A program made the translations under genes and the position numbers. From contig CAZVWU010000002.1 of NCBI GenBank assembly GCA_964631205.1, positions 755 to 64,754 on the forward strand: a DNA stretch of 64,000 bases. The letters run 5' to 3'. Origin of the DNA: an uncultured archaeon (GTDB taxonomy: Archaea > Aenigmatarchaeota > Aenigmatarchaeia > QMZP01 > JACQNV01). Position 1 is the stretch's first letter. Each line of letters opens with the position of its first letter. The notes beneath the pieces were generated by a model, which was not told the origin of the DNA, did not search any database, and saw nothing but the letters and a program-made list of their open reading frames with translations. Shown here piece by piece: positions 15,506-64,000 of the stretch.

Positions 15506-16270
15506 TTGTGTATGGCAGTATCTGTTGTAATTCCAGTTTTTAATTATGAAGCAGGGGTCGAGGCAACGGTAAAAAACATAAGGGAGAAAGCAGAAGCCGG
15601 GGAAATTGTTTTGGTCTGGGATGTCACGAAGCCGGAGCTGAAAGGCAAGGTGGCAGAGCTGGCTGATAAATTAAAAAAGAAATACAAAACCACTGCTTAT
15701 TTCAGGTTCAAACAGAAAGGTTTTGGCTCAGCTGTCAGATTGGGTTTTGAAAAGGCAAAAGGGGATGTAGTTGTTTTGATGATGGCTGACATCTGCGATG
15801 ATCCAAAAACAATAAGATTGATGGAAAAAGAAATGGAAAAAGGGTATGACATTGTTTCAGGATGCAGGTATTGCAAAGGCGGCGGGATAATAGGAGAGGC
15901 GTTTAAACAAAAAATTTCCTCTGCAGTTTCTTTATTAATAAATATTTTCAGCAGTGTAAAATGCAGGGACCTGACAAATGCGTTCAAAATGTACAAGAAA
16001 GAAGTCCTAAAAAATATTAAAACAGAATCAAATAATTTCGATCTTTCAATAGAGCTTCCGCTTAAAGCTGCAAGAAAAGGCTATAAAATCTCGCAGGTCC
16101 CGACAGTCTGGAAAAACAGGGATGCTGGAAAATCAAACTTCAATTTCATCGGTGAGAGTAAAAGGTATTTGAAATGGTTTTTATATTCAGCATTCTGGAT
16201 GCCATCATTGCTTACAAAATTTCTTGCGGCTTCGGTTCTTTTGCTGGGTATATGGAGAGTCTTTTTTTAA
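15506..16270 (+). CDS. GT2 glycosyltransferase, dolichyl-phosphate sugar synthase-like
   Basis: VSVVIPVFNYEAG ... VVLMMADICDDP, with a C-terminal TM helix (DPM1/GtrB-like architecture). Confidence 0.7.
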   Translation: MCMAVSVVIPVFNYEAGVEATVKNIREKAEAGEIVLVWDVTKPELKGKVAELADKLKKKYKTTAYFRFKQKGFGSAVRLGFEKAKGDVVVLMMADICDDPKTIRLMEKEMEKGYDIVSGCRYCKGGGIIGEAFKQKISSAVSLLINIFSSVKCRDLTNAFKMYKKEVLKNIKTESNNFDLSIELPLKAARKGYKISQVPTVWKNRDAGKSNFNFIGESKRYLKWFLYSAFWMPSLLTKFLAASVLLLGIWRVFF

Positions 16271-17255
16271 GCCAATCAACTGTTATTCCCAGCCCTGTAT
16301 CTAAATCAACTTTTGGCTTCCATCCAAGAGCCGTTATTTTTGAAATGTCAGGCACTCTTTTCTGGACATCATATTGTAATGCTGAAAGATTTTTAAATTT
16401 TATCTCCTTTTCTGTTCGGCAGATTTTCCAAATCTTTTCTGCCAATTCCTTGACAGAAGTTTCAATTCCAGTCCCTATATTGAAATCGTCATTTTCCGCT
16501 TTTTCAGCAATAAAAATTATTGCGTCCGCGAGGTCGTCCACATATGTATAGCTTCGTGTTTGGTCTCCTGATCCCAGAATTTCAAGCGGGTATTGACCTG
16601 AGAGTATTTTCTTGACAAGGTCTGGTATGATATGCGAATATCCAATATAATCCCCTGGAACCTCTCCTGGTCCGTATGCATTGAAAGGCCTTGCAATAAC
16701 ATAAGGGACACCAAACTCCTCAAAATAGGTTTTTGCAATATATTCTGAAACCAGTTTGGAAAATCCGTATCCTGTAAGAGGAGGCGGCGAAGTTTCAATT
16801 GCTTTTTCCGGTGTTGGAAAAACAGAAGCGCGCTCAAAAACCATCGAGGACGACAGGCATACGATCTTTGTTTTTTCTTTCTTTGATGCGTCCCATAAAT
16901 TCAAATTTAGGATGGAATTGTCCCTTACGCTTGTCGCAGGGTATTTGTGAAAATAGCCTATTCCGCCTATAATTGCCGCGAAATGGAAGCAGACATCAAT
17001 TCCCTCCATTGATTTTTCTGCATTTTCTGTGTTGAGTAGATTAAGTTGCTTGAATTCTATTTTATCAAGGATATTTTCCAGATTTATCGATTCGCCTTTA
17101 GATAAATTGTCAACAACCCTGACATTCGCGCCTGCTTGAACCAATTTTATTGCAACCCTAGATCCTATAAATCCAGCGCCACCTGTAACCAAGATTTTTT
17201 TGTTTTGCCAGAAATTCATACAATTATTTCCCGCTCCCAAACCTGATGTAATCAA
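16212..17255 (-). CDS. NAD-dependent epimerase/dehydratase (extended SDR)
   Basis: ILVTGGAGFIGSRVAIKL Rossmann motif and a YxxxK region. Confidence 0.8.
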   Translation of the reverse strand: MITSGLGAGNNCMNFWQNKKILVTGGAGFIGSRVAIKLVQAGANVRVVDNLSKGESINLENILDKIEFKQLNLLNTENAEKSMEGIDVCFHFAAIIGGIGYFHKYPATSVRDNSILNLNLWDASKKEKTKIVCLSSSMVFERASVFPTPEKAIETSPPPLTGYGFSKLVSEYIAKTYFEEFGVPYVIARPFNAYGPGEVPGDYIGYSHIIPDLVKKILSGQYPLEILGSGDQTRSYTYVDDLADAIIFIAEKAENDDFNIGTGIETSVKELAEKIWKICRTEKEIKFKNLSALQYDVQKRVPDISKITALGWKPKVDLDTGLGITVDWLKKRLSIYPAKEPKPQEIL

Positions 17256-18528
17256 AACCTGATGCCTTCGCCTCTTCCCTGTCCACTATTCCCCAACAGT
17301 CGACCAATATGCAATCTTTTTTGTGGCTGCCGATCGTTGCTATTTTTTTATGCACATCCCTGAAATCTGAATGGTTAGTTGCGATTATTATTGCGTCGGC
17401 ATCCTTTACAGCTTCTTCAAGCGATTCTGTATTTTGGATTAAAGGGTCGTGCACCGAAACTTCTGCATTGCTTCCTTTAAGTATCTCAACTATCCTTACA
17501 GAAGGCGAGTATTTTGTGTTGTCGCTGTTTGCCTTGAATCCAAGGCCTAAAACAGCTATCCTTGAGTTGTGGAGCTTTTTGTTTTGTTTTTCTAGCCTTC
17601 CTTTCAGCCTGTTAATCATGTGTTGGGGGATAGATTCGCTAAGCCTCCATGCAACTTGAATGAAATCAGGGAAAGAAAGGTGTGCAGTAAGGTAATACCC
17701 GTCTTTGCTCAGGCAGGGGCCGCCTGTGAGTCCTGGAATTGGAAGGCCTCCCCTTTTGTAGCCTTCATTCACGAGCTTTATTACCTCATGCCCGTCCTCC
17801 CCATAAGTTTCTGCAAGCAGGCCAAATTCATTTCCGAGTGAGAAGTTGATATACCTGTAGACATTTGCAAAAAGCTTTGCAAGCTCTGCAGCTTTTGGAG
17901 TCGCCCTGAGAATTTTTTTGTCCTTGTTTATTTTTCGGAAAATTTCCTCAGCAATGTCGCCTGAAATTTTATCCATAGAGCCGATAATTTCTGGAAGCTC
18001 CATGATTTCTTTTATCGACTGGCCTTCCACAATCCTTTCAGGGCAGACAGCCAAGCCAAAATCCTCTCCTGCTTTCAGGCCCGTCCTCTTTTCTATGAAA
18101 GGTTTTATCACTTCCTCAAGAGTGCCAGGGGAAGCTGTCGACCTCATTATTATCATCTTGCCATTCAATGGATTTTTCACAAGGCCTTCAAGAGCAGATG
18201 TGAGCTGCGTGTAATCAGGCCTCATGTGCTCGCCTATTGGAGTCCCCACTGTAAGTATCAGCGCGTCGGATTTTGAAATTGCATCCTTTGCATCAGTTGT
18301 CGCTGTAAAATTATTTGTCTTAATGTAATCGTCTATCAGTTCCTCTTTAAACGGCGGGATTTTCTTATTTATGCTTTCAACGTATTCCTTGTTTACGTCT
18401 ATCCCAATTACTTTTATTCCAGAATTCGCAAAAACAAGCCCTAAAGGGAGGCCTACCCGCCCTATGCCTACAATCCCTATCGAAAATCCATTTGTTTTGA
18501 CTTTTTCTAGAAGCTGTTCAAGAAGCAT
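17224..18528 (-). CDS. nucleotide-sugar 6-dehydrogenase (UDP-glucose/UDP-ManNAc dehydrogenase family)
   Basis: IGIVGIGRVGLPLGLVFA NAD-binding N-terminus with a catalytic Cys region GGPCLSKD. Confidence 0.8.
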   Translation of the reverse strand: MLLEQLLEKVKTNGFSIGIVGIGRVGLPLGLVFANSGIKVIGIDVNKEYVESINKKIPPFKEELIDDYIKTNNFTATTDAKDAISKSDALILTVGTPIGEHMRPDYTQLTSALEGLVKNPLNGKMIIMRSTASPGTLEEVIKPFIEKRTGLKAGEDFGLAVCPERIVEGQSIKEIMELPEIIGSMDKISGDIAEEIFRKINKDKKILRATPKAAELAKLFANVYRYINFSLGNEFGLLAETYGEDGHEVIKLVNEGYKRGGLPIPGLTGGPCLSKDGYYLTAHLSFPDFIQVAWRLSESIPQHMINRLKGRLEKQNKKLHNSRIAVLGLGFKANSDNTKYSPSVRIVEILKGSNAEVSVHDPLIQNTESLEEAVKDADAIIIATNHSDFRDVHKKIATIGSHKKDCILVDCWGIVDREEAKASGFDYIRFGSGK

Positions 18529-18611: not shown

Positions 18612-18971
18612 CTAATGTTTTCCAGGCAGGCTGGTGTATTTATCTAATCCACATCTTAGATCCGGGATCTTTTTTGCCAGTGCATCAAAATGTTTTTTGT
18701 ATTCTGGATTTAGCGGACTAATACGATCTGCGTCTTGAGGTTGCCACTTTCCCCGATTCAGATCATCACACACATAATTCTTACGCCTTGCCATGCCATC
18801 TGTACTATCCCCCCACATAAAACTAATGCAGGCAATGTCGCCACCTTGATAAACGACTCCCAAATACATTAAAGGGACTGTTGATTTTGTATCTATCAAG
18901 GCCTTGGTATAGACAGTTGAAAGACCGTCGTCATCCGTTTGCCAGTCTGTCTCAATTTTTATCTTTCTCAT
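18612..18971 (-). CDS. hypothetical protein (operon member 3)
   Basis: 119 aa with no recognised motif. A 4-bp overlap with the upstream gene implies co-translation. Confidence 0.4.
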   Translation of the reverse strand: MRKIKIETDWQTDDDGLSTVYTKALIDTKSTVPLMYLGVVYQGGDIACISFMWGDSTDGMARRKNYVCDDLNRGKWQPQDADRISPLNPEYKKHFDALAKKIPDLRCGLDKYTSLPGKH

Positions 18972-19837
18972 ATTTGATCCATTCTAATAGAATCCCAATC
19001 ATCAATTTCAACATGCACAGCAGTCCTGTCATCAAGCCTGTCGCCTTTTAATCCAGGATAGTTTTTGCACCTTTGTGGGTCTTCATTATAAACCTTTTTT
19101 AGTTTGGATTCTAACCCCTCTATCGTAAAGCCGTCTTGGTTGTCAGGCTCTTCAAAACCGTCGCTCCAGAGAAGCAGGTTTTTTGGTGTTGGAATTTCAA
19201 TAAATGTGATGCCTTCTTGTGGCAGGGTTTCTGTCCCGTCTATTGCAGGATAGCTGAACTTGTGGCCAAGTACGTTCTGCGTTTCATATTGGGAAATAAT
19301 AAAGGCGTTAAGCATCTTCTTGAACCAGTCTTCAGATCCATTTTCAATGCACCACTTTCTGAGCTCAGTGTGATGGGTGTCTATCGCTTTTGTAATTCCT
19401 GTAAGTATCCTGCTATCAGCTGCTAACCTGACATCGCCAACTCCTGTAACAACAGTCTTCTCTGGCGCCACTATTGCGTGTGCTATGTAGCCTGTAAATG
19501 TAAGCGCCCTGTTTTCCCTGTAGCCCTTTATGCCGAGCTGTTCATAGGCTCCTCTTATCCTCTCATTTGCGAGTTGAATAAGCTTGTATCCGGTTTCGTC
19601 TGTCCTTTCTATTACATCCTTGACTAGAGTGGAACCAATAACACCGCCATTATATTTTGTGTCTGCAGGCTCGCCTCTCAAAACTGCTGTTTCTTCATGT
19701 GTATAAGGCCCGCCAACAAGGTTGGATGCCCAATCGCCGACTGCAACCTTAAGCCTGTGGCCATTAAAATCAATAAAATAAAAATCTTCAGAAATCTTTT
19801 TCCCTGTTCCAGGCTGATAATAAATTTTTGCTTTCAT
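18968..19837 (-). CDS. hypothetical protein with weak PP2C-like phosphatase signatures (operon member 2)
   Basis: VTGVGDVRLAADSRIL resembles PP2C (N)VGDSRA(V)L, and LLWSDGF resembles PP2C SDGLWD. The match is weak. 4-bp overlaps on both sides. Confidence 0.4.
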   Translation of the reverse strand: MKAKIYYQPGTGKKISEDFYFIDFNGHRLKVAVGDWASNLVGGPYTHEETAVLRGEPADTKYNGGVIGSTLVKDVIERTDETGYKLIQLANERIRGAYEQLGIKGYRENRALTFTGYIAHAIVAPEKTVVTGVGDVRLAADSRILTGITKAIDTHHTELRKWCIENGSEDWFKKMLNAFIISQYETQNVLGHKFSYPAIDGTETLPQEGITFIEIPTPKNLLLWSDGFEEPDNQDGFTIEGLESKLKKVYNEDPQRCKNYPGLKGDRLDDRTAVHVEIDDWDSIRMDQI

Positions 19838-20820
19838 AAATCAGATATTGAAGGCTGGGGGAGCTCTATTTTACTTCCTTCTGCCTGCGAAGCTTTCAGT
19901 TTTGAAATGTCGCAGCCGTATCTGTAAACCCAAAAATCTATCACATCAAGAGACTTTCCTTGTATATTTGCTGTCCCCGCATCCATAGCATCTTGTTCTT
20001 TTATAAACCTCATCATGTAGTCTGGATCATTAGGGAGCAGCCTTAAATTTTTTCCAAATTCAGGTTCATTTTTAGCTTTCTTTTGGGTAGCTCTCCAGTC
20101 TTCATATTTTTCTTTTGTCTGTTTTCCATCAGTGTTTAGCTGAACAACAAAGGAAAATGTAGGGTGATATGTCCCTTCCCTTTTACTTGCTCCGATAGCC
20201 CAGCCAGGAATAATCCGCGAAATATCTAGATCATGGTTCACACCTATCTCTTCTCCCAATTCGCGATATATTTGCGCTCCGAAAGAAGGATGGCCATCTG
20301 GTGATATCAACAAACCGCCTGCAGGCACACCAAGCTTTCCAAGATAGGCTCCTTCTGCTTTCGTGCTTGAGCCAAAGACTATTTTTTCTCCTGTTTCATC
20401 TGGTTTAGTTAAAACCACTGCATTGACGTATGCGGCCTGGAGAGAGGTTGGCTGGCTTCTTGAAAAAGCAAACCTGAAATACGAGCTTGCAACTCCTTTA
20501 AAAACAAGATGATTATTTTCAACTTTGATGTCTGCTGGATCCATGGAAATCGCGACTATAGGATCATCAAAAAAAGTGCCTCCTTTCAACTTTTCGATTT
20601 CTTCCTTCTCCGAAATAAACTGGGCAAAAGTTTTCCCTTTTACTTTATCACCAACCGGAATCTGATGAGTATTGGGGTCAAAACTTCCTATTCTAATTCC
20701 TGAGTAGCCGCTGAAAGGCACATGATACCGCTTTCTATCTGGCATAACTAAAATATACTTTTCCTTATGGGCGAGTTTAAGCTCATCCTTTCTGAAAATA
20801 CTATCTCTTCGTCTTTGCAA
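19834..20820 (-). CDS. hypothetical protein with Nudix-box-like motif (operon member 1)
   Basis: GAQIYRELGEEIGV matches the RE(U)xEExGU core of the Nudix box but lacks the upstream Glu. The annotated start is a TTG; an internal ATG (MPDRKRY) is possible. Confidence 0.4.
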   Translation of the reverse strand: MQRRRDSIFRKDELKLAHKEKYILVMPDRKRYHVPFSGYSGIRIGSFDPNTHQIPVGDKVKGKTFAQFISEKEEIEKLKGGTFFDDPIVAISMDPADIKVENNHLVFKGVASSYFRFAFSRSQPTSLQAAYVNAVVLTKPDETGEKIVFGSSTKAEGAYLGKLGVPAGGLLISPDGHPSFGAQIYRELGEEIGVNHDLDISRIIPGWAIGASKREGTYHPTFSFVVQLNTDGKQTKEKYEDWRATQKKAKNEPEFGKNLRLLPNDPDYMMRFIKEQDAMDAGTANIQGKSLDVIDFWVYRYGCDISKLKASQAEGSKIELPQPSISDL

Positions 20821-22717: not shown

Positions 22718-22733
22718 GTAAAATAAAGTTTAG

Positions 22734-24214: not shown

Positions 24215-24216
24215 AA

Positions 24217-27412: not shown

Positions 27413-27415
27413 TTT

Positions 27416-29894: not shown

Positions 29895-29907
29895 GTTTGC
29901 CTCCTCC

Positions 29908-34525: not shown

Positions 34526-34541
34526 CGCAGAGCTTATCGAT

Positions 34542-42948: not shown

Positions 42949-43010
42949 GCTAAGTGGTATTTAAATTCATTCTGGGATACAAATATAAGGGTGTTTTACA
43001 CCTGCTTATT

Positions 43011-50697: not shown

Positions 50698-50754
50698 AAA
50701 TAGATCTTTCTCCTCTTTTATATAAAACAATACCAAATAGTGAACTCTATATTT

Positions 50755-53764: not shown

Positions 53765-53808
53765 TTCAGTAGACTTTATATGATCTTGTTTTAATATATT
53801 TTGTCGAT

Positions 53809-56467: not shown

Positions 56468-56497
56468 AATATGTTTAAAGCAGCTAATTTTAAATAG

Positions 56498-57517
56498 TCA
56501 ACTAATTATAAGCGAATGCGTCTTTATCTCGTCTGAAAGCTCAACTGCAACATATCTTCTTCCGAAATCGTCCATATGCTCGTTTGGGTTTAGGGCATAT
56601 GTGAAATGCTCGCGGCTTAGGCTGAAGGAAAGATCTTTTATTTCTAGCTCATTTTTGTACATCTGGACGATTGCTTCTATATTTCTTGACACTATATCCT
56701 TAAAATCGGGCAGTTTTTCAGTTCCACTTTGGTAATCTATTGGCGTTATATATACAAGTAAATTAACGCCACAATTTTTATAATTTTTTATTGTATTTCC
56801 AAGAGACAGGAGCTTTCTATGAGTTGAATTGATTGTGTATAAATAATGGTATATAAATTTTTTCCTTATTTTGTCCTGGAGATCAGGGTCTTTTTCAGTC
56901 ATTTTGAAATTAAAGTCTATAACCCTGCCTACAGGGATTGTGTTGTAATAAACTATTTGGTTTTTCCATTTTATTTCATCCTCGCCTTCTGCCTGGCCTC
57001 CAAAAACCCTTGAAAACCTGTTCCAAAAATTTTCAAGAACATTATCTTTGGATTTTATTTGTTTGATTTCGTCTTTGAACTGGTATTGGGGCCGTGTGTC
57101 CCATTCAGGGCTGAACGATCTTAGATTTATTGGAAAAATAACGAGTTGTGGCTTTTTTTCTGATTCGCAAATGTACTTGCTGAATTCTTCATAAATCCCA
57201 AGGTGGTAAGCATTGTTTGATATTACAGATAATGACCCATTTTCGAGAATATTCCGCAACATGTCTCCGATTGGACGCGTATCTGTATCGTTCAGTCCTG
57301 TCCATCTCATTGTCGAATCGCCAAAATATATGATTTGTGTGTTGTTTTGTATGGATTTTCGAAGTTCATCCAACTCTGGGAAGTTTGTATTATCTAAATA
57401 GCCTTCAATCATAAGCCCTGCTATAACTACAATTGCGGTAAAACCTGCAGACTTCAGCAAAAATTCTTTTATGCCACCCATACTAAAATTGGAAATAGAT
57501 AAATTTTGGGCTTGCAT
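56498..57517 (-). CDS. SGNH/GDSL-like hydrolase-fold protein, membrane anchored (MBOAT partner)
   Basis: N-terminal TM segment and IIYFGDSTMRW (GDS block I). It sits adjacent to the MBOAT gene. Confidence 0.5.
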   Translation of the reverse strand: MQAQNLSISNFSMGGIKEFLLKSAGFTAIVVIAGLMIEGYLDNTNFPELDELRKSIQNNTQIIYFGDSTMRWTGLNDTDTRPIGDMLRNILENGSLSVISNNAYHLGIYEEFSKYICESEKKPQLVIFPINLRSFSPEWDTRPQYQFKDEIKQIKSKDNVLENFWNRFSRVFGGQAEGEDEIKWKNQIVYYNTIPVGRVIDFNFKMTEKDPDLQDKIRKKFIYHYLYTINSTHRKLLSLGNTIKNYKNCGVNLLVYITPIDYQSGTEKLPDFKDIVSRNIEAIVQMYKNELEIKDLSFSLSREHFTYALNPNEHMDDFGRRYVAVELSDEIKTHSLIIS

Positions 57518-58922
57518 GCCCGAAAAATATTATAGCCAATATAAGGAAGATGTAAGACCCCCACCTGAACAAAATATTTTTATTGGAAAAAATTTCAATT
57601 AAATTCGTCTTTGACTGGATGGCATATACAGAAACTATAAAAGCTATAAGGCCTAAGGACAGCAAAATTTCATCCCATCCGAGGCCTACCCTAAGGCCTG
57701 AGAAATCCAATGTTATCCCGCTCAGCATATTGCTTATAATATAATATGCATCAGAAAGTGTGTCTGCCCTGAAGAAAATCCAGGCGAATGTCACAAGGGA
57801 GAATGTAATCCCTATGCTAATTAGTGAATAGATTGATGGGAATTTGTGAAGATTTATTTTATGCGTGAATTTAGTTCTAAAACCGGTTGTTATCACATCG
57901 GATAATATATACCCCCCGTGCAGAATGCCCCAAACAATAAATGTCCAGCTCGCTCCATGCCATAAACCGCTTATTAGAAATACGATTAGAATGTTGATGT
58001 ATAATCTCCTGACAGAAACCCTATTCCCGCCCAAAGATATGTATACATAATCCCTGAACCAGCTTGAAAGGGAGATGTGCCACCTTCTCCAGAATTCTGG
58101 GACCGATTTTGAAAAATATGGCCTGTTGAAATTTTTCATTAGGTTGAAACCCATGACTCTAGCCGAGCCGATTGCTATTGTTGAATAGCCGGCAAAATCG
58201 CAAAATATCTGGAATCCGAAAAAGACTGTTGCGACCATCAATGGAAGGCCTGTATAATCTGTTGGATTAGCGTAGACTGTATTGACAAATATTGCCAGCC
58301 TGTCTGCAACCACCACTTTCAAAAACAATCCCCAAAGAATCAGTTTCAAGCCGTTTGAAACTCTTTTATAATCAAAATTGTGCTTTTCCCTGAATTGGTG
58401 GATAAGATTTTGCGGCCTTTCTATAGGGCCTGCGACAAGCTGCGGATAAAACATCACATACAAGGCATATATCCCTATATTCCTTTCCGGCTTCTGTTTT
58501 TTCCTGTATACTTCTATGACATAGCTTAAGCTTTGGAATGTATGGAATGACAAGCCTATCGGCAATAGAATCGATAAAGCTTCTATAGAATAGTTCCATC
58601 CTATTAAATTGGCGAGGCTATTCAGGTTGGACCCAAAAAAGTTGTAATATTTGAAAATAAAGAGCGTGGCGCATGTTGCAAGGATGCTTGCTGCAAGGAC
58701 GCCTTTTCTTTTCCTTCCTTCAGCTTTTTCTATAAATATTCCCGCAAGATAATCAACCAATATCAGGAAAAAAAGGGTGAATATATATATCGGGATTAAG
58801 GAGATGTAAAAAACCACGCTGGCCGCTAAAAGCAAAGCCCAGCGGAACCTGTGTGGCAAAAGAAAGTACGCTGTTGTAACCAAGCCGAAAAATACAAAAA
58901 ATTCCACTGAATTGAATAGCAT
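57483..58922 (-). CDS. MBOAT-family membrane-bound O-acyltransferase (AlgI/DltB-like)
   Basis: FWRRWHISLSSWFRDYVYISLGGNR with a conserved His in a multi-TM protein. Confidence 0.85.
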   Translation of the reverse strand: MLFNSVEFFVFFGLVTTAYFLLPHRFRWALLLAASVVFYISLIPIYIFTLFFLILVDYLAGIFIEKAEGRKRKGVLAASILATCATLFIFKYYNFFGSNLNSLANLIGWNYSIEALSILLPIGLSFHTFQSLSYVIEVYRKKQKPERNIGIYALYVMFYPQLVAGPIERPQNLIHQFREKHNFDYKRVSNGLKLILWGLFLKVVVADRLAIFVNTVYANPTDYTGLPLMVATVFFGFQIFCDFAGYSTIAIGSARVMGFNLMKNFNRPYFSKSVPEFWRRWHISLSSWFRDYVYISLGGNRVSVRRLYINILIVFLISGLWHGASWTFIVWGILHGGYILSDVITTGFRTKFTHKINLHKFPSIYSLISIGITFSLVTFAWIFFRADTLSDAYYIISNMLSGITLDFSGLRVGLGWDEILLSLGLIAFIVSVYAIQSKTNLIEIFSNKNILFRWGSYIFLILAIIFFGHASPKFIYFQF

Positions 58923-58951
58923 AATTTAACAGACAGGTAATTTAATTGATG

Positions 58952-59905
58952 TCAACCTTTAATTGCTTTCAGCGCTATATCCAAAGTCTTTAAGGCGTCT
59001 TCGCCGCTTGTGATTGGTGTTTTATTGCTTTTTATGCATTCAAGAAAATGCTGCAGTTCTAGCTTCAAAGGCTCCTGTTTTTCGACGTGCACTTCTGTCC
59101 TGCGAGGCTCCCCGAATTTGAGCACGAAATCGCCGAATTGGTCGTGCCCTTTCTCATAATTGGATTCATGCACTACAAGATTTTGCGTTATGTAATTGAG
59201 TTCTGCATATCCCTTTGTACCTGTAACATTAAGCAGCCTTATTTTAACTGGTGTTATCCAGTTTGCTTCTATTAGTCCGCTTGCGCCATTATATTTTAAA
59301 AGTATGCTTGCATAGTCTTCTCTGTTGCCTATAGCTTTGCCGGAATTAGAGAATATTTCTATGGGCTGCTTTTCAAGCAGATACCCAAAAATATCTATGT
59401 CGTGGACAGCCAAATCGATTATTACATTCATATCTTTTATTTGTGGCGGAAACAGGCCTACTCTTCTTGCAAGAAGCGAAGTTATTTCTCCCAGCTGGCC
59501 AGCTTTTATTATTTCTTTCAGTTTCTGGACTGCGGGATTATATCTTTCTATATGGCCTACCATCAATTTTACATTATGTTTTTTCGAGAGGTCCACAAGA
59601 TTATTTGCTTCTGAAACCGAAGATGAAATCGGCTTTTCTATAAGGACGTTTACGCCAGCCTGTATAAGCTCTGAAGCTATCTTGTGGTGCATGGATGTAG
59701 GGACACAAACAGAGACAGCATCAGGCTTTTCGTTCTCTATCAGCTCATTGCATGACTTGTAAAAATTGCACCCAAGACGCTTGGCGTCTTCTTTCGCCTT
59801 TCCATTTGTATCGACTATGGCAACAAGATTCGAGCCTTTCAGCTCTGTATATACCCTTGCATGGTGTTTCCCCATGTTTCCTGCTCCAACAACCGCTGTT
59901 TTCAT
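58952..59905 (-). CDS. Gfo/Idh/MocA-family NAD-dependent sugar oxidoreductase (WbpB-like)
   Basis: MKTAVVGAGNMGKHHARVY and an EKP motif. Confidence 0.8.
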   Translation of the reverse strand: MKTAVVGAGNMGKHHARVYTELKGSNLVAIVDTNGKAKEDAKRLGCNFYKSCNELIENEKPDAVSVCVPTSMHHKIASELIQAGVNVLIEKPISSSVSEANNLVDLSKKHNVKLMVGHIERYNPAVQKLKEIIKAGQLGEITSLLARRVGLFPPQIKDMNVIIDLAVHDIDIFGYLLEKQPIEIFSNSGKAIGNREDYASILLKYNGASGLIEANWITPVKIRLLNVTGTKGYAELNYITQNLVVHESNYEKGHDQFGDFVLKFGEPRRTEVHVEKQEPLKLELQHFLECIKSNKTPITSGEDALKTLDIALKAIKG

Positions 59906-60978
59906 ATCCTGAATTCCTTTATTTTTTTTATTATATAATCTATTTCTTCAGCTTTAAGTCGAGGATGGACAGGCAAAGATACAACTTCTTTTGAAATTTT
60001 TTCTGAGATTGGGCAGCTTTGTTTTGGATCCCTGTAAATAGGCTGGAGGTTTAAAGGCGTTGGATAATATATTTTGGCCCCTATTCCATTTTCTGCCATA
60101 TAACTTAAAAACCTGTCCCTGTTTTCCCGGGTTTTTATTGTATACTGGTGCCATGAATGCTTGGCATTCTTGATCGTATAAGGGATTTCTATCCAAGGTA
60201 TCTTTTCTATGCTTTCCGTGAGGACCCTTGCATTCTCCGCTCTTTTTTTATTCAATATATCAAGCTTCTTTAATTGTATCCTGCCTATGGCAGCCTGGAT
60301 TTCTGACATTCTCTGGTTGAAGCCGATTTTCACATGATTATATTGGCCATCTTGGCCCTGATTTCTTATGATTTTCGACTCACGCTCTATCTTTTGCTTG
60401 TTTGTTGATATCATTCCGCCTTCGCCTGTTGTAATATTTTTTGTTGCGTAAAAAGAGAATGTAGAAATTTCGCCAAATGAGCCTGCTTTTTTTCCACTAT
60501 ATTCTGCGCCAAGAGATTGTGCGCAATCTTCAATCAAAAGGAGGTTGTTTTTTTGGCATATTTTCATTATGCTGCCCATTTCGCATGGCTGGCCGAACAA
60601 ATGAACGATGAGCACTGCCTTCGTTTTTTCTGTTATTTTTTGTTCAATTGAAACTGGGTCTATGTTGAATGTGTTTGGGTTTATGTCAGCAAAAATTGGC
60701 CTGCACTTATTGTAAACAATCGAATTTGCTGTTGCAATAAAAGTGAATGGCGTTGTTATGATTTCAGAGCCTTCCGGAATTCCCAAGGTTTCTATGCCTA
60801 TTTGCAGGGAAGAGGTTCCGGAAGATGTTGCAGCAGAATATTTTGCCCCCAGATAAGCTGAAAACTCTTTTTCAAATGCTTCTACATTCTTCCCCTGTGC
60901 AAGATCTCCTGACTTCAGAACATCTGTTACAGCTTCAATCTCCTCTTCGCCTATTGAAGGTTTTGATATGCTTATCAT
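59902..60978 (-). CDS. DegT/DnrJ/EryC1/StrS-family PLP-dependent sugar aminotransferase
   Basis: Fold-type I aminotransferase with FSFYATKNITTGEGG (PLP-Lys). Confidence 0.85.
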   Translation of the reverse strand: MISISKPSIGEEEIEAVTDVLKSGDLAQGKNVEAFEKEFSAYLGAKYSAATSSGTSSLQIGIETLGIPEGSEIITTPFTFIATANSIVYNKCRPIFADINPNTFNIDPVSIEQKITEKTKAVLIVHLFGQPCEMGSIMKICQKNNLLLIEDCAQSLGAEYSGKKAGSFGEISTFSFYATKNITTGEGGMISTNKQKIERESKIIRNQGQDGQYNHVKIGFNQRMSEIQAAIGRIQLKKLDILNKKRAENARVLTESIEKIPWIEIPYTIKNAKHSWHQYTIKTRENRDRFLSYMAENGIGAKIYYPTPLNLQPIYRDPKQSCPISEKISKEVVSLPVHPRLKAEEIDYIIKKIKEFRI

Positions 60979-62096
60979 AATTTATCAGGGAGTTTCAATT
61001 CATTTTTTTCAAAAGCGGCTTTTGTTATCTCTAGGATTCTGTTGCTTGCCTTGCCGTCGCCGAACGGGGAAGGCAGGTTTTTGACTGTTTCCTTGAATCT
61101 CGGGGAAATTAATTCATCTACCAATTCTATGATCCTTTTCCCGGAATAACCTGAAATTTTCCAGAAAACATCCTCGCCTTCTGTGTCGACCCAGTTATCG
61201 GTGTATACTATTGTTGGTATTTTATATGCTGTCGCCTCTTTGAGTGCCCCACCGGAATCTGTCAGCAAAAGCTTTGCGTTGTTTAAAAAAGCCAAAAAAT
61301 CAAAATAGCCTACAGGCTCTATGATGTTTATTGATTTTTTGTTTATCAGATTAGTCAAGTTGAATTTTTCGATCATTTTTGCTGTCCTAGGGTGCATTGG
61401 AAAAATGATTTGATAAGTTTCGCTCAACTCTCCAAGAGTTTTTAAGAATTCTTCAAGCTTGTCTTTGTAATCAACTGTCTCTGCCCTGTGAAGAGTAACA
61501 AGGATATAATTTTTAGGGTCTATTTGCCTGTAAATATTGGCTTTTTCTTTTGCAAGTTCTGTGAACTCGTAGCATGCATCTATGATTGTATTTCCTGTCA
61601 CAAATATGCGGTTTTGGTGTATCCCTTCTTTCAATAATTTTTGCATCGAGTCTTCAGAATGTGCAAACAATAAGGAAGATATGTGGTCTGTCAATAGCCT
61701 GTTGACTTCTTCAGGCCTCCTTAAATCATAGCATCTGGGACCAGCTTCTATATGGCCAACAGGCAAGTGGATTTTTACAGCAGAAAGGGCAGCTGACAGG
61801 GTTGAATTTGTGTCCCCCTGGACCAAAGCAATGTCAAACTTTTTTTCCGCGAAAATTTTTTCCAGAAAAGGCATCATTGCTGACATGTGTTCGGAGTGCG
61901 TTTCTGCTTCATATTGCAGCTTAAAATCCGGCTCAGGAAGCCCCAATTCTTTTATAAAAATCCCTGCCATGTTGAAATCGTAGTGCTGACCAGTCTGGAT
62001 AAAAGAGAAATCTAGTTTATTTTTCTGCAGCTCTTTTATCAGGACTGCAACCCTTATGATTTCAGGCCTTGTCCCGGCAATCACAGCTATTTTCAT
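60975..62096 (-). CDS. UDP-N-acetylglucosamine 2-epimerase (non-hydrolysing), WecB family
   Basis: MKIAVIAGTRPEIIRVAVLI ... VQGDTNSTL ... HIEAG. Start is set at MKIAV. Confidence 0.85.
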   Translation of the reverse strand: MKIAVIAGTRPEIIRVAVLIKELQKNKLDFSFIQTGQHYDFNMAGIFIKELGLPEPDFKLQYEAETHSEHMSAMMPFLEKIFAEKKFDIALVQGDTNSTLSAALSAVKIHLPVGHIEAGPRCYDLRRPEEVNRLLTDHISSLLFAHSEDSMQKLLKEGIHQNRIFVTGNTIIDACYEFTELAKEKANIYRQIDPKNYILVTLHRAETVDYKDKLEEFLKTLGELSETYQIIFPMHPRTAKMIEKFNLTNLINKKSINIIEPVGYFDFLAFLNNAKLLLTDSGGALKEATAYKIPTIVYTDNWVDTEGEDVFWKISGYSGKRIIELVDELISPRFKETVKNLPSPFGDGKASNRILEITKAAFEKNELKLPDKL

Positions 62097-62211
62097 ATCC
62101 ACAGCAAATGGTTGTTGTAAGCCTGAAAAGATATAAAGGTTTACCAAAGTATGCGGTTGAACAATCTGTGAGAAGTTATTTAAATTAACAGGGTTATTAA
62201 CCTAAGGAAGT

Positions 62212-63273
62212 ATGATATTGACATTCGCAGGCACAAGGCCGGAGCTGATAAAGCTTTCCCAGCTTGTGCCGCTTATAGACAAAAGCTTTGAGCAGAAGTT
62301 TGTTCTCACAGGGCAGCATTATGCCAAAAACATGGTTGACATATTTTTGGAAGAGCTTGGCATGAGAAAGCCTGACGTTTTCCTTGAAACAAAAAGCTCA
62401 GAGCATTCCCAGAATTTGCCGCCGATCAAAAATCTTATCCGGAAAGAGGAGCCTGAAGCTGTGATTGTTTATGGGGATACAAATTCGATGCTGCCTGCAG
62501 CAATGGCTGCCAGTAAGTTGGGGGTCAAGGATATTATACACGTGGAGGCTGGGCTCAGGAGTTTTGACCAAAGGATGGCTGAAGAAACTGTAAGGGTTTT
62601 AATTGACCACATCAGCGATATACTCTTCACGCCAACCGAGCTGACATGCAATTTCTTAAAAAAAGAGGGGCTAACAGAAAAAACATTTATAGTGGGAAAT
62701 ACAGTAGTTGATTCCTGCATGGCGTATCTTCCTCGCGCCGAAAAAAGCGATGTTTTAAATAGATTAAGCTTAGAGGCAGGCAACTTTATTTTATCTACAG
62801 TCCATAGGGCTGAGAATGTTGACTATCCTGAAAAACTGGCTAGGCTGCTTCAGGCTTTTAACCAGCTTCCTTTGCAGGTCGTACTTCCTCTGCATCATAG
62901 AGCGAAGGCCAGGCTCGACGAATTTGGATATAAGATTCCAGGAAATGTGACAACTATCGATCCGGTGGGGTACATCGATATGCTGAAATTAATGAAAAAT
63001 TCGGCTTTGATAATGACAGATTCAGGCGGCGTCCAGGAAGAGGCAATAACCCTCAAAGTCCCATGCATAACTGTCAGGGAGACTACAGAAAGATGGGAGA
63101 CTATTGAGGCCGGCGCGAATTTTTTGGTTGGGACAGATCCCGAGCTTATAAAATATAAAACAAGAATGGTCTTGGAGACTGGCATGAAGAGCAGGCTTGC
63201 CAATATTCCAAACCCCTACGGCAATGGGGATTCCAGCAAGAGAATCGTTGAAGAGCTGAAAAAGCTCCTTTAA
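62212..63273 (+). CDS. UDP-N-acetylglucosamine 2-epimerase, second WecB paralog
   Basis: MILTFAGTRPELIKL ... VYGDTNS ... HVEAG. Confidence 0.85.
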   Translation: MILTFAGTRPELIKLSQLVPLIDKSFEQKFVLTGQHYAKNMVDIFLEELGMRKPDVFLETKSSEHSQNLPPIKNLIRKEEPEAVIVYGDTNSMLPAAMAASKLGVKDIIHVEAGLRSFDQRMAEETVRVLIDHISDILFTPTELTCNFLKKEGLTEKTFIVGNTVVDSCMAYLPRAEKSDVLNRLSLEAGNFILSTVHRAENVDYPEKLARLLQAFNQLPLQVVLPLHHRAKARLDEFGYKIPGNVTTIDPVGYIDMLKLMKNSALIMTDSGGVQEEAITLKVPCITVRETTERWETIEAGANFLVGTDPELIKYKTRMVLETGMKSRLANIPNPYGNGDSSKRIVEELKKLL

Positions 63274-63304
63274 TTTATTATATTAGGCTTTACAAGATTG
63301 TGTT

Positions 63305-64000
63305 ATGAAAAATATTGATGTCTGCCTGAGGCTAAGCTCGCATCCGGTTTTCAATTATCTGGTCAAATTTCCGCCTGCAGGAGTGAATTACAATGTAAGC
63401 CAGAAAACAACTTTGAAATCCGAGGCGCCGGGCCTGAAAAAGGAGATTAAAAAGAAAATATGGACAGCGCTCACAAAATTCAGGCCGCCATATGTTAATG
63501 TTGACATTGGGGCCAACCAGCTTATCCATTCATGCCACGGGATGCTCATTTCCAATAAAGAGCCATGGGCTGTGGATGTGGAGCATGCGCCATCTTTCGC
63601 AAACTACCAGGCGGCGTCTCTGTTAAAAGACGACTACAGGAATAGAATAATTAAGCTGCTTGCTTCAGACAGCTGCAAAAAAATAATCCCTTGGACGCAG
63701 GCCGCAAAAATGTCCGTTGAAAACACTTTCAAAAATGAAAAAATTAATGAAAAAATGGTGGTTGTTTATCCTGCAGTTGACATAAAAAATATAAAAAGCG
63801 AAAAGGATGACGGCATTATAAGGTTCCTTGTTGCAAGCAGGTTCTTTTATGAAAAGGGCGGCAAGCAGGCATTGGAGGCTTTCGAGGACCTGGATAAAAA
63901 ATATGATGTTGAACTTGCTGTCCTGTCCATTGTGCCTGAAGAAATAAAAAAGAAATATTCGAAAATAAAATCGATAAATTTTGTTGAAAAAATCTTTGTT
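63305..64000 (+). CDS. glycosyltransferase (GT-B/GT4-like), 3'-truncated at window edge
   Basis: Open frame from ATG 63305 runs to the end of the window without a stop. Its GT-B N-terminal-like region goes into the C-terminal domain start (FLVASRFFYEKGG). Confidence 0.45.
   Translation, partial: MKNIDVCLRLSSHPVFNYLVKFPPAGVNYNVSQKTTLKSEAPGLKKEIKKKIWTALTKFRPPYVNVDIGANQLIHSCHGMLISNKEPWAVDVEHAPSFANYQAASLLKDDYRNRIIKLLASDSCKKIIPWTQAAKMSVENTFKNEKINEKMVVVYPAVDIKNIKSEKDDGIIRFLVASRFFYEKGGKQALEAFEDLDKKYDVELAVLSIVPEEIKKKYSKIKSINFVEKIFV

Follow-up and report, generated by a model that had tools for sequence, protein, structure and literature searches.

A near-continuous run of glycan genes occupies positions 15506 to 64000 of the window (the whole 64,000-nucleotide stretch of DNA analysed), as judged by per-gene Pfam and NCBIfam scans. 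Assignments come from Pfam/NCBIfam HMM scans, PDB search, AF2 models with Foldseek, hhalign and TM prediction. Of the 46 ORFs in this span, 33 have direct glycan-pathway matches in Pfam and NCBIfam, five are plausible accessory genes and four (25531-29011) encode folate one-carbon enzymes; Pfam, NCBIfam and PDB searches detected no family for the other four (three at 18612-20820, one at 22734-23615). Most of the specific NCBIfam models (PseB, FnlA, archaeal 3-dehydrogenase, DltB, NodU, HpnJ) score below their equivalog cutoffs. The source contig shows the island extending at least 10 kb past 64000, to a total of at least 58 kb. Conserved mevalonate genes are its neighbours, and GC passes from 0.42 upstream to 0.38 across 38-64 kb.

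The contig is real, since the same sequence is found in an ENA assembly and in a Logan assembly. It carries archaeal markers (a thermosome and a DUF35/thiolase/HMGCS trio), and its HMGCS shares 67-74% identity with Aenigmatarchaeota MAGs and 94% with an uncultured archaeon. The host appears to be an Aenigmatarchaeota-like archaeon (DPANN, tiny genome), the phylum being read from one marker protein and MAG labels.

The island opens with the following genes (strand in brackets):

15506..16270 (+), GT2 glycosyltransferase with C-terminal TM, polyprenyl-P-sugar synthase type (Pfam Glycos_transf_2, E 7e-19); syntenic homologue in L005, 69% identity
16212..17255 (-), SDR nucleotide-sugar epimerase/dehydratase (Pfam Epimerase, E 4e-53; 77% identity in L005)
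17224..18528 (-), nucleotide-sugar 6-dehydrogenase, UDP-ManNAc/GlcNAc dehydrogenase type (TIGR03026 331 bits, above cutoff; archaeal UDP-ManNAc dehydrogenase model 265 bits, below cutoff)
18612..20820 (-), three soluble ORFs of 119, 289 and 328 aa (no Pfam, NCBIfam or PDB match)
21173..22717 (+), Wzx/MOP-family flippase, about 14 TM by prediction (Pfam Polysacc_synt, E 1e-28; also MatE, MurJ)

The conserved leader of GT2, SDR and 6-dehydrogenase (15.5-18.5 kb) is predicted to yield a HexNAc-uronic acid, and the flippase would export lipid-linked units. The 328-aa ORF, last of its trio, contains a Nudix-like box, RELGEEIGV, read from the sequence.

Next lie a putative formamido-sugar cassette (22.7-33.7 kb) and, within it, the folate genes; the last methyltransferase listed follows the cassette:

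22734..23615 (-), 293-aa protein (no Pfam family or PDB match)
23612..24214 (-), HAD phosphatase (Pfam HAD_2, E 1e-10)
24217..25476 (-), Zn-ribbon NDP-4-keto-6-deoxyhexose 3-C-methyltransferase, TylC3/TcaB9 type (Pfam Methyltransf_13, _23, _14; full-length PDB matches to 4rv9 (TylC3), E 1e-89, and TcaB9, E 4e-82)
25531..26100 (+), 5-formyl-THF cyclo-ligase (Pfam 5-FTHF_cyc-lig, E 1e-33)
26072..27412 (+), serine hydroxymethyltransferase, SHMT (Pfam SHMT, E 4e-153)
27416..28270 (+), FolD, methylene-THF dehydrogenase/cyclohydrolase (Pfam THF_DHG_CYH and its C-terminal domain)
28259..29011 (-), CofE-like gamma-glutamate ligase, folate-associated type (best match TIGR04132, 'putative folate metabolism gamma-glutamate ligase', 250 bits, below the cutoff of 350)
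29013..29948 (-), Fmt/ArnA-like formyltransferase, Asn-less subfamily (Pfam Formyl_trans_N; PDB 1zgh, Fmt, ArnA, sugar formyltransferases); true start probably M19
29908..30597 (-), PIG-L/LmbE de-N-acetylase, partner of the formyltransferase (Pfam PIG-L, E 2e-21)
30600..31496 (-), RmlD-like 4-keto reductase (Pfam RmlD_sub_bind, E 4e-57; TIGR01214 212 bits vs cutoff 224)
31493..32524 (-), UDP-GlcNAc 4,6-dehydratase, CapD/PseB/FnlA family (Pfam Polysacc_synt_2, E 7e-104; PseB 321 and FnlA 294 bits, each below its cutoff)
32659..33672 (+), GT2 glycosyltransferase, cassette-adjacent in L014 and L015 too (59%)
33674..34525 (-), class I SAM methyltransferase (Pfam Methyltransf_11, E 2e-15)

The dehydratase and the RmlD-like reductase would convert UDP-GlcNAc to a UDP-2-acetamido-2,6-dideoxyhexose, with the TylC3-type enzyme possibly branching the 4-keto intermediate. 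The 293-aa protein travels with the C-methyltransferase and HAD genes, and L015 has a 41% homologue in an identical C-methyltransferase/unknown/HAD order. The PIG-L enzyme would then take off the N-acetyl group, and the Fmt-like transferase would add N-formyl from 10-formyl-THF. These last two enzymes are a conserved gene pair. Across 59 loci they always run in the same direction and in 56 they are adjacent; one further protein, P0075, is a PIG-L/formyltransferase fusion. Among 37 large loci, 26-31 hold the dehydratase and 18-27 the RmlD-like gene. Invariant in the formyltransferase family are H117, D153 and the folate-site motif HPSPLPKYRGGSP. Unlike canonical members, the family lacks the catalytic Asn, having C115 at the position of ArnA N102, and we count this against our preferred reading.

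The folate module beside the formyltransferase was absent from the first-pass annotation, as was any mention of a DPANN-type archaeal host. We predict that FolD, SHMT, the cyclo-ligase and the glutamate ligase form a self-contained route carrying formyl groups from serine to an N-formyl 6-deoxy-hexosamine: the first three would regenerate the donor from serine, and the CofE-like ligase would polyglutamylate folate, retaining it in the cell. FolD homologues abut the formyltransferase in four of the 37 large loci (L014, L015, L020, L079; 39-67% identity). Since such adjacency is rare, and rarer still for SHMT (one locus), the cyclo-ligase (one) and the CofE-like gene (none), the folate genes could instead be housekeeping.

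Downstream of the predicted formamido-sugar cassette, the assembly backbone comprises:

34542..35129 (+), 4Fe-4S ferredoxin fused to a PterinBD-DUF4346 domain (Pfam Fer4_15, DUF4346; start set to 34542, replacing ORF start 34149); syntenic with the B12-radical SAM gene in L097, 74% identity
35142..36656 (-), B12-binding radical SAM enzyme (Pfam B12-binding and Radical_SAM; CPYRCTFC motif; 80% identity in L097)
36696..38120 (-), polytopic membrane protein, about 9 TM by prediction, with its C-terminal domain outside; a candidate for a GT-C enzyme or a polymerase (weak DUF6798/DUF6541 matches; hhalign to the 44653 family, probability 39%)
38122..39426 (-), FAD oxidoreductase, amine-oxidase/phytoene-desaturase fold (Pfam Amino_oxidase, E 3e-35; NF005560 313 bits, above cutoff; 77% identity in L097)
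39494..41092 (-), polytopic membrane protein, about 10 TM and a C-terminal domain by topology, no family
41198..42148 (-), SDR 4-epimerase-like enzyme, GalE/TviC type (Pfam Epimerase, E 1e-57; GalE 174 and TviC 157 bits, both below cutoff)
42217..42948 (-), short GT2, polyprenyl-P-sugar synthase type (Pfam E 4e-36)
42954..43961 (+), SDR 4,6-dehydratase-like enzyme (Pfam GDP_Man_Dehyd, E 6e-57; LegB and dTDP-glucose dehydratase models below cutoff)
43958..44668 (-), short GT2 (Pfam E 3e-23)
44653..46452 (-), probable GT-C-fold glycosyltransferase, about 10 TM (hhalign 89.7%, E 2e-6, to the L013 PMT_2 protein)
46449..46883 (-), 144-aa single-TM protein (syntenic L097 homologue, 52%)
46880..48010 (-), GT4 glycosyltransferase (Pfam Glycos_transf_1, E 6e-38)
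47976..48479 (-), Alg13-like catalytic half of a split GT28 (Pfam Glyco_tran_28_C, E 3e-15)
48494..50158 (-), NodU/CmcH-type O-carbamoyltransferase (Pfam Carbam_trans_N, _C; NodU model 176 bits, below cutoff)
50212..50622 (-), Alg14-like membrane-anchor half, 136 aa (Pfam Alg14, E 5e-21)
50740..52608 (+), AsnB-type glutamine amidotransferase (Pfam Asn_synthase, GATase_7; TIGR01536 above cutoff; EPS-type TIGR03108 521 bits, below cutoff)

This region (34.5-52.6 kb), which another lineage shares, reads as an assembly backbone: Alg14/13-like GT28, GT4, GT2s, SDRs, AsnB, the FAD oxidoreductase, and the B12-radical SAM enzyme with the ferredoxin-DUF4346 protein as its partner. Its two short GT2s probably make polyprenyl-P-sugars for one to three GT-C-like outside transferases. 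The second GT2 gene overlaps that of the 44653..46452 membrane protein in a GtrB/ArnC-like pairing, and L013 also has a GT2 plus PMT_2 pair. A D-x-x-F-H loop aligns between this membrane protein and the L013 PMT_2 protein; Pfam PMT_2 gives E 0.012 and the AF2 model was too poor. Among the GT-C-like membrane proteins named earlier, this one is probable on weak evidence, and the other two are candidates by topology. AsnB passes a genuine asparagine-synthase model, which we count against our reading.

C-methylation had been ascribed to the Zn-ribbon enzyme and two B12-radical SAM enzymes. The first attribution stands. The second is weak because the island holds one such enzyme, whose best NCBIfam match, HpnJ (224 bits), is below cutoff; the other CxxxCxxC B12-radical SAM protein (6559-8097) lies outside, beyond housekeeping genes. 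HpnJ is a ring contraction enzyme, not a methylase.

The remaining genes in the window are:

52616..53764 (-), GT4 glycosyltransferase, opening a 9.6-kb module
53809..55383 (-), SDR epimerase/dehydratase fused to HAD phosphatase (Pfam Epimerase, E 2e-47; HAD_2, E 2e-23)
55376..56467 (-), ATP-grasp ligase, PylC-like N-terminal domain (domain searches)
56498..57481 (-), DltD-like SGNH-fold protein, N-terminal TM anchor (AF2 pLDDT 93.6; Foldseek top matches DltD 3bma/6pfx, E 2e-5, then SGNH esterases and PatB)
57483..58922 (-), DltB-like MBOAT membrane O-acyltransferase (Pfam MBOAT, E 3e-29; DltB model 168 bits, below cutoff)
58952..59905 (-), UDP-GlcNAc 3-dehydrogenase-like GFO/IDH/MocA oxidoreductase (best match archaeal model NF040723, E 6e-103, full length, 345 bits vs cutoff 450)
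59902..60978 (-), DegT/PLP sugar aminotransferase (Pfam E 3e-127)
60975..62147 (-), non-hydrolysing UDP-GlcNAc 2-epimerase WecB1, module member (TIGR00236 326 bits, above cutoff)
62212..63273 (+), non-hydrolysing UDP-GlcNAc 2-epimerase WecB2, backbone member (TIGR00236 325 bits, above cutoff)
63305..64000 (+), GT4 glycosyltransferase, truncated where the window stops (source-contig gene call with Pfam)

In the inserted module (52.6-62.1 kb), the 3-dehydrogenase, DegT aminotransferase and WecB would make a 2,3-diamino sugar. The module contains no acetyltransferase, and the ATP-grasp ligase is its likely N-acylating enzyme; L098 carries a hexapeptide acetyltransferase in the ligase's place. The MBOAT and SGNH pair would O-acylate the glycan outside the membrane; S68, N131 and H314 of the SGNH-fold protein are invariant across 41 homologues. 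The module also has a GT4 of its own. On the source contig the truncated GT4 is followed by an SDR, an NTP_transferase, a second Zn-ribbon C-methyltransferase, more SDRs and a GT2.

In all, the island in the window has four GT2s, three GT4s (one truncated by the window end), one split Alg14/Alg13-like GT28, one Wzx/MOP flippase, one MBOAT and, besides the 4,6-dehydratase and RmlD-like reductase, four SDRs, one with a HAD fusion. No STT3/AglB oligosaccharyltransferase, initiating phosphoglycosyltransferase or clear Wzy was found in the window or the 10 kb beyond; STT3 is present in one relative, 6 kb from a homologous formyl-sugar cassette.

Comparison with relatives bears on how these genes belong together. 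The evidence can be summarised as (i) the closest relative, L013, is syntenic over 8112-15177 and has a different GT/MT/PMT_2 glycan cluster at the same site, so the locus is variable; (ii) of the island genes, L005 has the first three and no others; (iii) in L007 the 3-dehydrogenase and DegT genes adjoin HMGCS; (iv) L097 is co-linear with 34.5-52.6 kb (48-85% amino acid identity), without a carbamoyltransferase gene in that stretch and, at the matching site, without the 9.6-kb diamino-sugar/MBOAT block (52616-62147). The L097 WecB is 69% identical to WecB2 and only 37% to WecB1. The carbamoyltransferase is a single-gene insertion between Alg14 and Alg13. Gene order and the conservation and variability of modules show the island to be mosaic, each module having a history of its own.

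The first-pass annotation had described a glycan biosynthesis and decoration island of more than 45 kb with about 40 consecutive sugar genes. The island was upheld by per-gene HMM, PDB and fold tests and proved larger; the count does not hold as worded, since the 46 ORFs comprise 33 direct matches and five plausible accessories besides the folate genes and those without a family. Nearly all its named enzymes were recovered: the two WecBs, PseB/CapD dehydratase, WbpB-like oxidoreductase with DegT, Fmt-like and LmbE genes, NodU-type carbamoyltransferase, AsnB, phosphatase-fused SDR, MBOAT, GT2/GT4 and Wzx by HMM, and SGNH by structure rather than HMM. Its view of a single glycan pathway fared less well: a core of UDP-GlcNAc-derived acetamido sugars fits, but the genes do not demonstrably belong to a single pathway making a single glycan, because relatives show modules with separate histories.

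We propose that this is, very probably, a real cell-surface glycan island of at least 58 kb, in which cassettes have been joined at a variable locus and do not form one linear pathway. Domain, family and fold assignments predict formyl, carbamoyl, C-methyl, amide and O-acyl decorations around UDP-GlcNAc-derived acetamido sugars; substrates, step order, products and acceptor (S-layer/N-glycan or another glycoconjugate) are inferred from them. Loci of this kind are already familiar; the size and some of the modules are unusual. Points added here are the PIG-L/formyltransferase pair and the presence of folate enzymes beside a sugar formyltransferase in a DPANN surface-sugar island.

The locus is a hypervariable surface-glycan island of a familiar class, with an enzyme logic common to archaeal agl clusters and bacterial O-antigen loci. 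An ORF listing combined with per-gene Pfam and NCBIfam scans, from 15506 to the end of the window, gave 46 ORFs, 33 of which received a direct glycan-pathway assignment. These assignments confirm the overall finding, and the island is now well annotated. The first-pass annotation had counted about 40 consecutive sugar-related genes, which holds for those 33 but not throughout. The other 13 ORFs are five plausible accessories (a SAM methyltransferase, a B12-radical SAM enzyme, a ferredoxin-DUF4346 protein, an FAD oxidoreductase and a HAD phosphatase), four folate one-carbon enzymes and four ORFs without a detectable family.

Glycan-pathway families of the island
Glycosyltransferases: four GT2, three GT4 (the third cut at 64000) and a GT28 split into Alg14-like and Alg13-like halves
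Transport and acylation: a Wzx/MOP flippase; an MBOAT protein and its SGNH partner
Sugar-nucleotide enzymes: two WecB 2-epimerases, both above the TIGR00236 cutoff; a Polysacc_synt_2 4,6-dehydratase; an RmlD-like reductase; a nucleotide-sugar 6-dehydrogenase above the TIGR03026 cutoff; four further SDRs, one as a HAD-domain fusion
Amino-sugar enzymes: a PIG-L deacetylase, an Fmt-like formyltransferase, a GFO/IDH/MocA oxidoreductase and a DegT aminotransferase
Decorating enzymes: a NodU-type carbamoyltransferase, an AsnB amidotransferase, an ATP-grasp ligase and a Zn-ribbon C-methyltransferase

Positions of the segments and genes discussed
15.5-18.5 kb: leader
21173-22717: flippase (Polysacc_synt/MOP), about 14 TM
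22.7-33.7 kb: formyl cassette
25531-29011: folate genes
29013-29948: formyltransferase
29908-30597: PIG-L deacetylase
34.5-52.6 kb: backbone
35142-36656: B12-radical SAM enzyme
44653-46452: GT-C-like membrane protein
48494-50158: carbamoyltransferase
52616-62147: inserted module, with GT4, SDR-HAD, ATP-grasp, DltD-like, MBOAT, 3-dehydrogenase, DegT and WecB1 genes
55376-56467: ATP-grasp ligase
56498-57481: DltD-like protein
60975-62147: WecB1
62212-63273: WecB2, part of the backbone

Domains, folds, gene order and conservation are established by these analyses, and substrates, products and acceptor are inferred in outline. The island would consist of four cassettes: a uronic-acid leader; a cassette for a formamido-6-deoxyhexosamine that brings its own formyl supply and perhaps a 3-C-methyl branch; a shared backbone of cytoplasmic GT4/GT28 enzymes, polyprenyl-phosphate-sugar GT2s paired with outside GT-C-like transferases, and amidation; and an inserted module for a diamino sugar and O-acylation. 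Carbamoylation would have been added through the insertion of a single gene.

Assignment of the C-methyltransferase was upheld. It aligns along its entire length with sugar 3-C-methyltransferases of solved structure (4rv9, E 1e-89, residues 8-418; TcaB9, E 4e-82), and its Pfam domains (Methyltransf_13, _23 and _14) give the TylC3/TcaB9 architecture of a Zn-binding N-domain, a SAM domain and a C-terminal sugar domain. The four ORFs without a family (within 18612-20820, and at 22734) have no Pfam match even at E 10 and no PDB match. The ORF at 22734, the only one of the four scanned with NCBIfam, had no match there, and its homologue search returned only itself. A Nudix-like resemblance between the ORFs at 19834 and 22734 was marginal (E 0.09) and is not claimed. 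ORF 34149-35129 overlaps the methyltransferase gene on the opposite strand; since its domain matches begin only after M132, the start of the ferredoxin-DUF4346 gene is placed at 34542.

Of the membrane proteins previously called GT-C-like, the one at 44653-46452 is a candidate for that assignment. By hhalign it aligns with a relative's bona fide PMT_2 protein (89.7% probability over 407 columns) with the acidic first-loop motif in register, and D129 is invariant; the Pfam PMT_2 match itself is faint (E 0.012), and the AF2 model (pLDDT 46.9, from a four-sequence alignment) is too low for use. The proteins starting at 36696 and 39494 are GT-C candidates by topology: both are polytopic with C-terminal outside domains, and their similarity to the 44653 family is weak. 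Matches to Wzy_C and Wzz are absent, and these same two polytopic proteins are candidate polymerases.

The first-pass annotation also placed two B12-radical SAM enzymes in the island. A six-frame scan of the window for CxxxCxxC returned 35142-36656 and 6559-8097 (minus strand) alone; the latter lies outside, with thermosome, Fic, secreted-protein and mevalonate genes between it and the island, and a second island enzyme was rejected on this result. The two proteins are 28% identical, and both combine B12-binding and radical SAM domains as in the HpnJ/calditol-synthase type. A 447-aa protein without a Pfam family (8112-9455, plus strand) adjoins the upstream radical SAM gene and is kept in two related loci, L005 (59%) and L013 (68%).

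On an alternative reading, the island's radical SAM enzyme, the ferredoxin-DUF4346 protein, the FAD oxidoreductase and the polytopic proteins next to them would not C-methylate a sugar but act in the remodelling of a lipid-linked sugar or of the lipid itself. Such remodelling could be an HpnJ/Cds-like ring contraction that yields a cyclitol head group, or modification of the polyprenol carrier. We regard this as quite possible, if short of probable. Class B radical SAM enzymes are mostly methylases, with GenK and GenD1 acting on sugars, and every Hpn match in the window falls far under its equivalog cutoff. HpnJ is nonetheless the best NCBIfam model for both radical SAM enzymes (224 bits for the island protein and 358 bits, full length, for the upstream one, against a cutoff of 578); HpnE is among the matches of the FAD (phytoene-desaturase-fold) enzyme and HpnA among those of the SDRs; and these genes together with the membrane proteins form a block that is conserved in L097, a 49-kb contig from another sample. 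HpnJ has been proposed to be a ring-contraction enzyme, not a methylase, that with HpnI (a glycosyltransferase) and HpnK (a deacetylase) makes the BHT cyclitol ether, and calditol synthase has been proposed to carry out a similar contraction in archaea (PMC13459092). One possibility for the upstream enzyme at 6559-8097 would be HpnJ/calditol-synthase-like contraction of a sugar ring.

The formyl cassette couples a PIG-L deacetylase to a formyltransferase of the Formyl_trans_N fold. Homologues of the latter are common across DPANN, CPR and marine metagenomes, and one of them (P0075) is fused to a PIG-L domain. Both genes occur in 59 of 83 fetched loci, always on the same strand (59/59), nearly always in the order PIG-L then formyltransferase (57/59) and with a gap below 300 nt (56/59). 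Neighbourhoods were counted over the 37 loci that reach 8 kb or more: alongside the pair, 26-31 of them have a CapD/SDR dehydratase, 18-27 an RmlD-like gene, and 7-9 the pseudaminic-like markers NeuB, CMP-transferase and GNAT. In nine loci, mostly from marine metagenomes (L028, L038, L059, L064, L065, L078, L082, L091 and L092), the pair is embedded in pseudaminic-acid-like clusters that also encode NeuB, CMP-transferase, GNAT and DegT, and the acetyl-to-formyl module may thus serve nonulosonic acids elsewhere. Such a pathway was rejected for the window because NeuB and CTP_transf_3 are absent from it and from the next 10 kb.

H117, D153 and the folate-site motif HPSPLPKYRGG are invariant in 32 formyltransferase sequences. 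The catalytic Asn of Asn-x-His is missing: the position of ArnA N102 is C115 here, and C, A, I or V across the family. Transfer of a formyl group from 10-formyl-THF to an amino sugar is a prediction from context, namely the pairing and fusion with PIG-L, the adjacency of FolD and the sugar-cluster neighbours. In addition to FolD, the window carries SHMT, 5-formyl-THF cyclo-ligase (5-FCL) and a CofE-like ligase whose best model, below cutoff, is TIGR04132 ("putative folate metabolism gamma-glutamate ligase"). Together these enzymes could run a closed cycle, with the net reaction serine + NADP+ + sugar-NH2 -> glycine + NADPH + sugar-NHCHO. Serine would feed SHMT and then FolD to give 10-formyl-THF, with 5-FCL in repair and the CofE-like ligase as polyglutamylase. 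We tentatively propose that a DPANN archaeon with a reduced genome maintains a closed folate cycle of its own, chiefly in the service of a previously uncharacterised, Asn-less class of sugar N-formyltransferases, obligately paired with PIG-L, which would convert N-acetyl to N-formyl on 6-deoxy-hexosamines (on nonulosonic acids in other lineages); taken as a whole, the proposal is possible and still doubtful. If it is true, N-formylated sugars would be a widespread and unrecognised surface trait of DPANN, CPR and marine microbes.

It is likewise possible, though we would not expect it, that the folate genes are an ordinary housekeeping one-carbon set brought into the island by chance or hitch-hiking, with no dedicated role in formyl supply. 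FolD is not near the formyltransferase in 33 of the 37 large loci, SHMT and 5-FCL are each near it in one, and the TIGR04132 description implies that FolD, the ligase and 5-FCL form a separate folate neighbourhood. Chance does not easily explain, however, why FolD directly abuts the formyltransferase in four diverged loci (L014, L015, L020 and L079; 39-67% identity), on either strand and including the two closest relatives. Few other consumers of 10-formyl-THF are expected either, because archaea are not known to formylate their initiator tRNA and purine synthesis is commonly lacking in DPANN. The literature searched yielded nothing relevant on N-formyl sugars in archaeal glycans, on a deacetylase plus formyltransferase route or on a link between DPANN folate and glycans, and no description of the PIG-L/formyltransferase/FolD arrangement was found in it.

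The inserted module contains the 3-dehydrogenase and 3-aminotransferase pair of a 2,3-diamino sugar route, in agreement with the first-pass annotation. The best model of the GFO/IDH/MocA oxidoreductase is the archaeal UDP-GlcNAc 3-dehydrogenase NF040723 (E 6e-103; 345 bits, below the cutoff of 450), and the DegT aminotransferase has a Pfam E of 3e-127. The 2-epimerase and 6-dehydrogenase of the UDP-2,3-diacetamido-2,3-dideoxy-(uronic) route are also present, as the two WecB proteins and the nucleotide-sugar dehydrogenase. No Hexapep or GNAT protein that could be the 3-N-acetyltransferase (WbpD-type LbH) occurs across the island, the 10 kb past the window included, and the Wbp-type diacetamido pathway is therefore incomplete here. 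In L098, a short contig from the same sample as L097, a hexapeptide (LbH) acetyltransferase (1629-2153) stands behind the MBOAT/DltD-like pair, where the window has the ATP-grasp gene. This difference may mean that lineages vary in the N-acyl group of the diamino sugar.

The SGNH partner proposed for the MBOAT protein was borne out by structure. The DltD-like protein has no match in Pfam, NCBIfam or PDB sequences, and its family profile finds none in the PDB, yet its AF2 model (pLDDT 93.6) has DltD as its best PDB fold matches (3bma, 6pfx and 6o93; E ~2e-5), with SGNH esterases and PatB next in rank. Its homologues number 967 in an exhaustive search, and in a 41-sequence alignment the residues S68 (part of a GDS motif), N131 and H314 do not vary. 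The best NCBIfam model of the MBOAT protein is DltB (168 bits, under cutoff). AMP-binding and PP-binding domains, and with them DltA and DltC, are absent throughout the window, so the pair is not a Dlt system; on sequence and modelled fold it is predicted to act as DltB/DltD or PatA/PatB do. The DltD-like family (about 1000 representatives of about 320 aa) has no Pfam model. The protein itself has the highest density of N-glycosylation sequons in the window (6 sequons, 18 per 1000 aa).

Comparison with relatives gave the synteny breaks expected of a variable locus. In the closest relative, L013, 8112-15177 is syntenic and a GT2/methyltransferase/GT4/PMT_2 cluster takes the place of the island. 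L005 keeps the first three island genes alone (69-77% identity), and in L007 3-dehydrogenase and DegT genes adjoin the HMG-CoA synthase gene (HMGCS). L097 is co-linear with the backbone and also has WecB2 and the genes after it, at 48-85% amino acid identity, lowest for the membrane proteins. It has no carbamoyltransferase, and at the matching site the inserted module as a whole is missing. The carbamoyltransferase gene sits exactly between the two halves of the split GT28, which are adjacent in L097 (7412-8484), and looks like a clean single-gene insertion. The GC content is 0.42 upstream and drops to 0.38 over the distal half (38-64 kb). Module borders show no tRNA genes, Rfam hits or integrase/transposase domains, and repeats there are at chance level; a mobile-element or att-site explanation was rejected on these grounds.

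The first reading had been of one dedicated pathway leading to a single heavily decorated S-layer N-glycan that carries every modification at once. The genes are contiguous and share one Wzx flippase, and Methanococcus N-glycans, which combine diacetamido-uronic acids with amide-linked threonine, provide a precedent. In L015 a homologous formyl-sugar cassette (69-3414) lies 6 kb from STT3/AglB and a Glycos_transf_4 initiating enzyme, which is the sole link found between the cassette and N-glycosylation. We nevertheless consider this reading unlikely: (i) the modules have different evolutionary histories and are found separately in relatives; (ii) nucleotide sugars enter by three or more independent routes and there are more than nine glycosyltransferases, which suggests several products or alternative side chains; (iii) STT3/AglB was found neither in any window ORF nor in the 10 kb past the window, and matches to PF00953 and PF02397 (initiating HexNAc-1-P transferases) are absent, the GT2s present including short ones of the Dol-P-sugar-synthase type. 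It is very improbable that the island arose through chimeric assembly or through the wrong joining of bacterial DNA to an archaeal contig: the lower distal GC and the many CPR bacteria among the closest formyltransferase homologues would fit, but the identical sequence appears in independent ENA and Logan assemblies, the junction from HMGCS to the island is kept in L005, L007 and L013 too have glycan genes at this site, and the module borders lack repeats, tRNAs and mobile-element genes.

A mosaic island in an archaeal genome is the reading we retain. Upstream lie a thermosome gene and an archaeal DUF35/thiolase/HMG-CoA synthase trio; HMGCS is 67-74% identical to proteins of MAGs labelled Aenigmatarchaeota (one labelled Nanoarchaeota) and 94% to that of an uncultured archaeon. 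The window is part of a 133-kb metagenome contig, independently recovered in the Logan assembly. Past 64000 the island continues for at least 10 kb (GT4, SDR, NTP_transferase, a second Zn-ribbon C-methyltransferase, more SDRs and GT2) and so spans at least 58 kb. DPANN archaea are host-attached and their genomes very small. For Aenigmarchaeota MAGs the average is 0.64-0.86 Mb (PMC8407114), and if this genome is typical in size, about 7-9% of it would be devoted to surface sugars. Its modular exchange between relatives would mark the cell surface as the main site of interaction with host, virus and environment. No description of the island itself was found in the literature searched. Three enzyme hypotheses are offered by it: the acetyl-to-formyl swap by PIG-L and formyltransferase, an archaeal DltB/DltD-like O-acylation pair, and a cofactor-supply module within a glycan locus.

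Several features upstream of the island were also recorded. Three consecutive proteins of about 300 aa (9459-12311, minus strand; 50-76% in L013) each begin with a TM or signal segment and lack both a Pfam family and N-X-S/T sequons; they may be surface proteins next to the island. A membrane-anchored GT2 (1781-2809, plus strand; Glyco_trans_2_3/GT21-like, E 6e-41), 13 kb upstream of the island, neighbours the thermosome gene and the gene of a DUF63 membrane protein. A PIN-domain protein gene preceded by a small ORF (11-790, plus strand) looks like a VapBC-type toxin-antitoxin pair, and a Fic/DOC protein is encoded at 5100-6056. A 34-nt direct repeat (13894-13927 and 14057-14090, 85% identical) repeats the start of the thiolase gene between that gene and HMGCS, probably as the remnant of a small duplication.

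Compared with archaeal agl clusters and the Methanococcus acetamido-sugar pathway, the island shares a UDP-GlcNAc 3-dehydrogenase-like enzyme, DegT, WecB, a UDP-HexNAc 6-dehydrogenase, a Wzx/AglR-like flippase and short GT2 plus GT-C-like pairs akin to AglD/AglS. It differs in having neither AglB nor a PF00953 or PF02397 initiating glycosyltransferase in reach and in having an ATP-grasp ligase in place of the N-acetyltransferase for the 3-amino group. It is also far larger and more decorated, and its host belongs to the DPANN and is neither a methanogen nor a haloarchaeon. Since STT3 is not in reach, it is not classed as an AglB-dependent N-glycosylation cluster on present evidence.

Bacterial O-antigen and capsule loci for 2-acetamido-2,6-dideoxy-L-hexoses (WbvB/WbvR/WbvD; FnlA/B/C, CapE/F/G) likewise use a Polysacc_synt_2 dehydratase, an RmlD-like 4-reductase and a WecB-type 2-epimerase. 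Here the PseB and FnlA equivalog cutoffs are not reached, and a PIG-L de-N-acetylase and a formyltransferase follow, which predicts an N-formyl and not an N-acetyl product. The formyltransferase has the Formyl_trans_N fold, catalytic His and Asp and the folate-site motif H-x-S-x-L-P-x-x-R-G in common with sugar N-formyltransferases (ArnA N-domain, WlaRD, VioF, WbtJ, Rv3404c) and with 1zgh. Its whole subfamily, 1zgh included, lacks the catalytic Asn, so that the enzyme fails one defining catalytic feature of the class by its sequence; the subfamily is also obligately paired with and sometimes fused to PIG-L, with FolD beside it in some lineages.

The acylation pair resembles the bacterial extracytoplasmic O-acylation systems DltB/DltD, PatA/PatB and AlgI/AlgJ-X in combining an MBOAT protein (best match DltB) with an adjacent, membrane-anchored, DltD-like SGNH partner that conserves Ser, Asn and His. 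It differs from them in the absence of DltA/DltC, in a partner family without a Pfam model and in a host that, as an archaeon, has no teichoic acid or peptidoglycan. Finally, hypervariable surface glycosylation islands, such as O-antigen loci and genomic islands of haloarchaea and Thaumarchaeota, have in common with this one a fixed site by core genes, lower GC, content swapped among close relatives and modular gain and loss. This island stands apart from them in its large size relative to a likely sub-megabase genome and in its inclusion of cofactor-supply genes.
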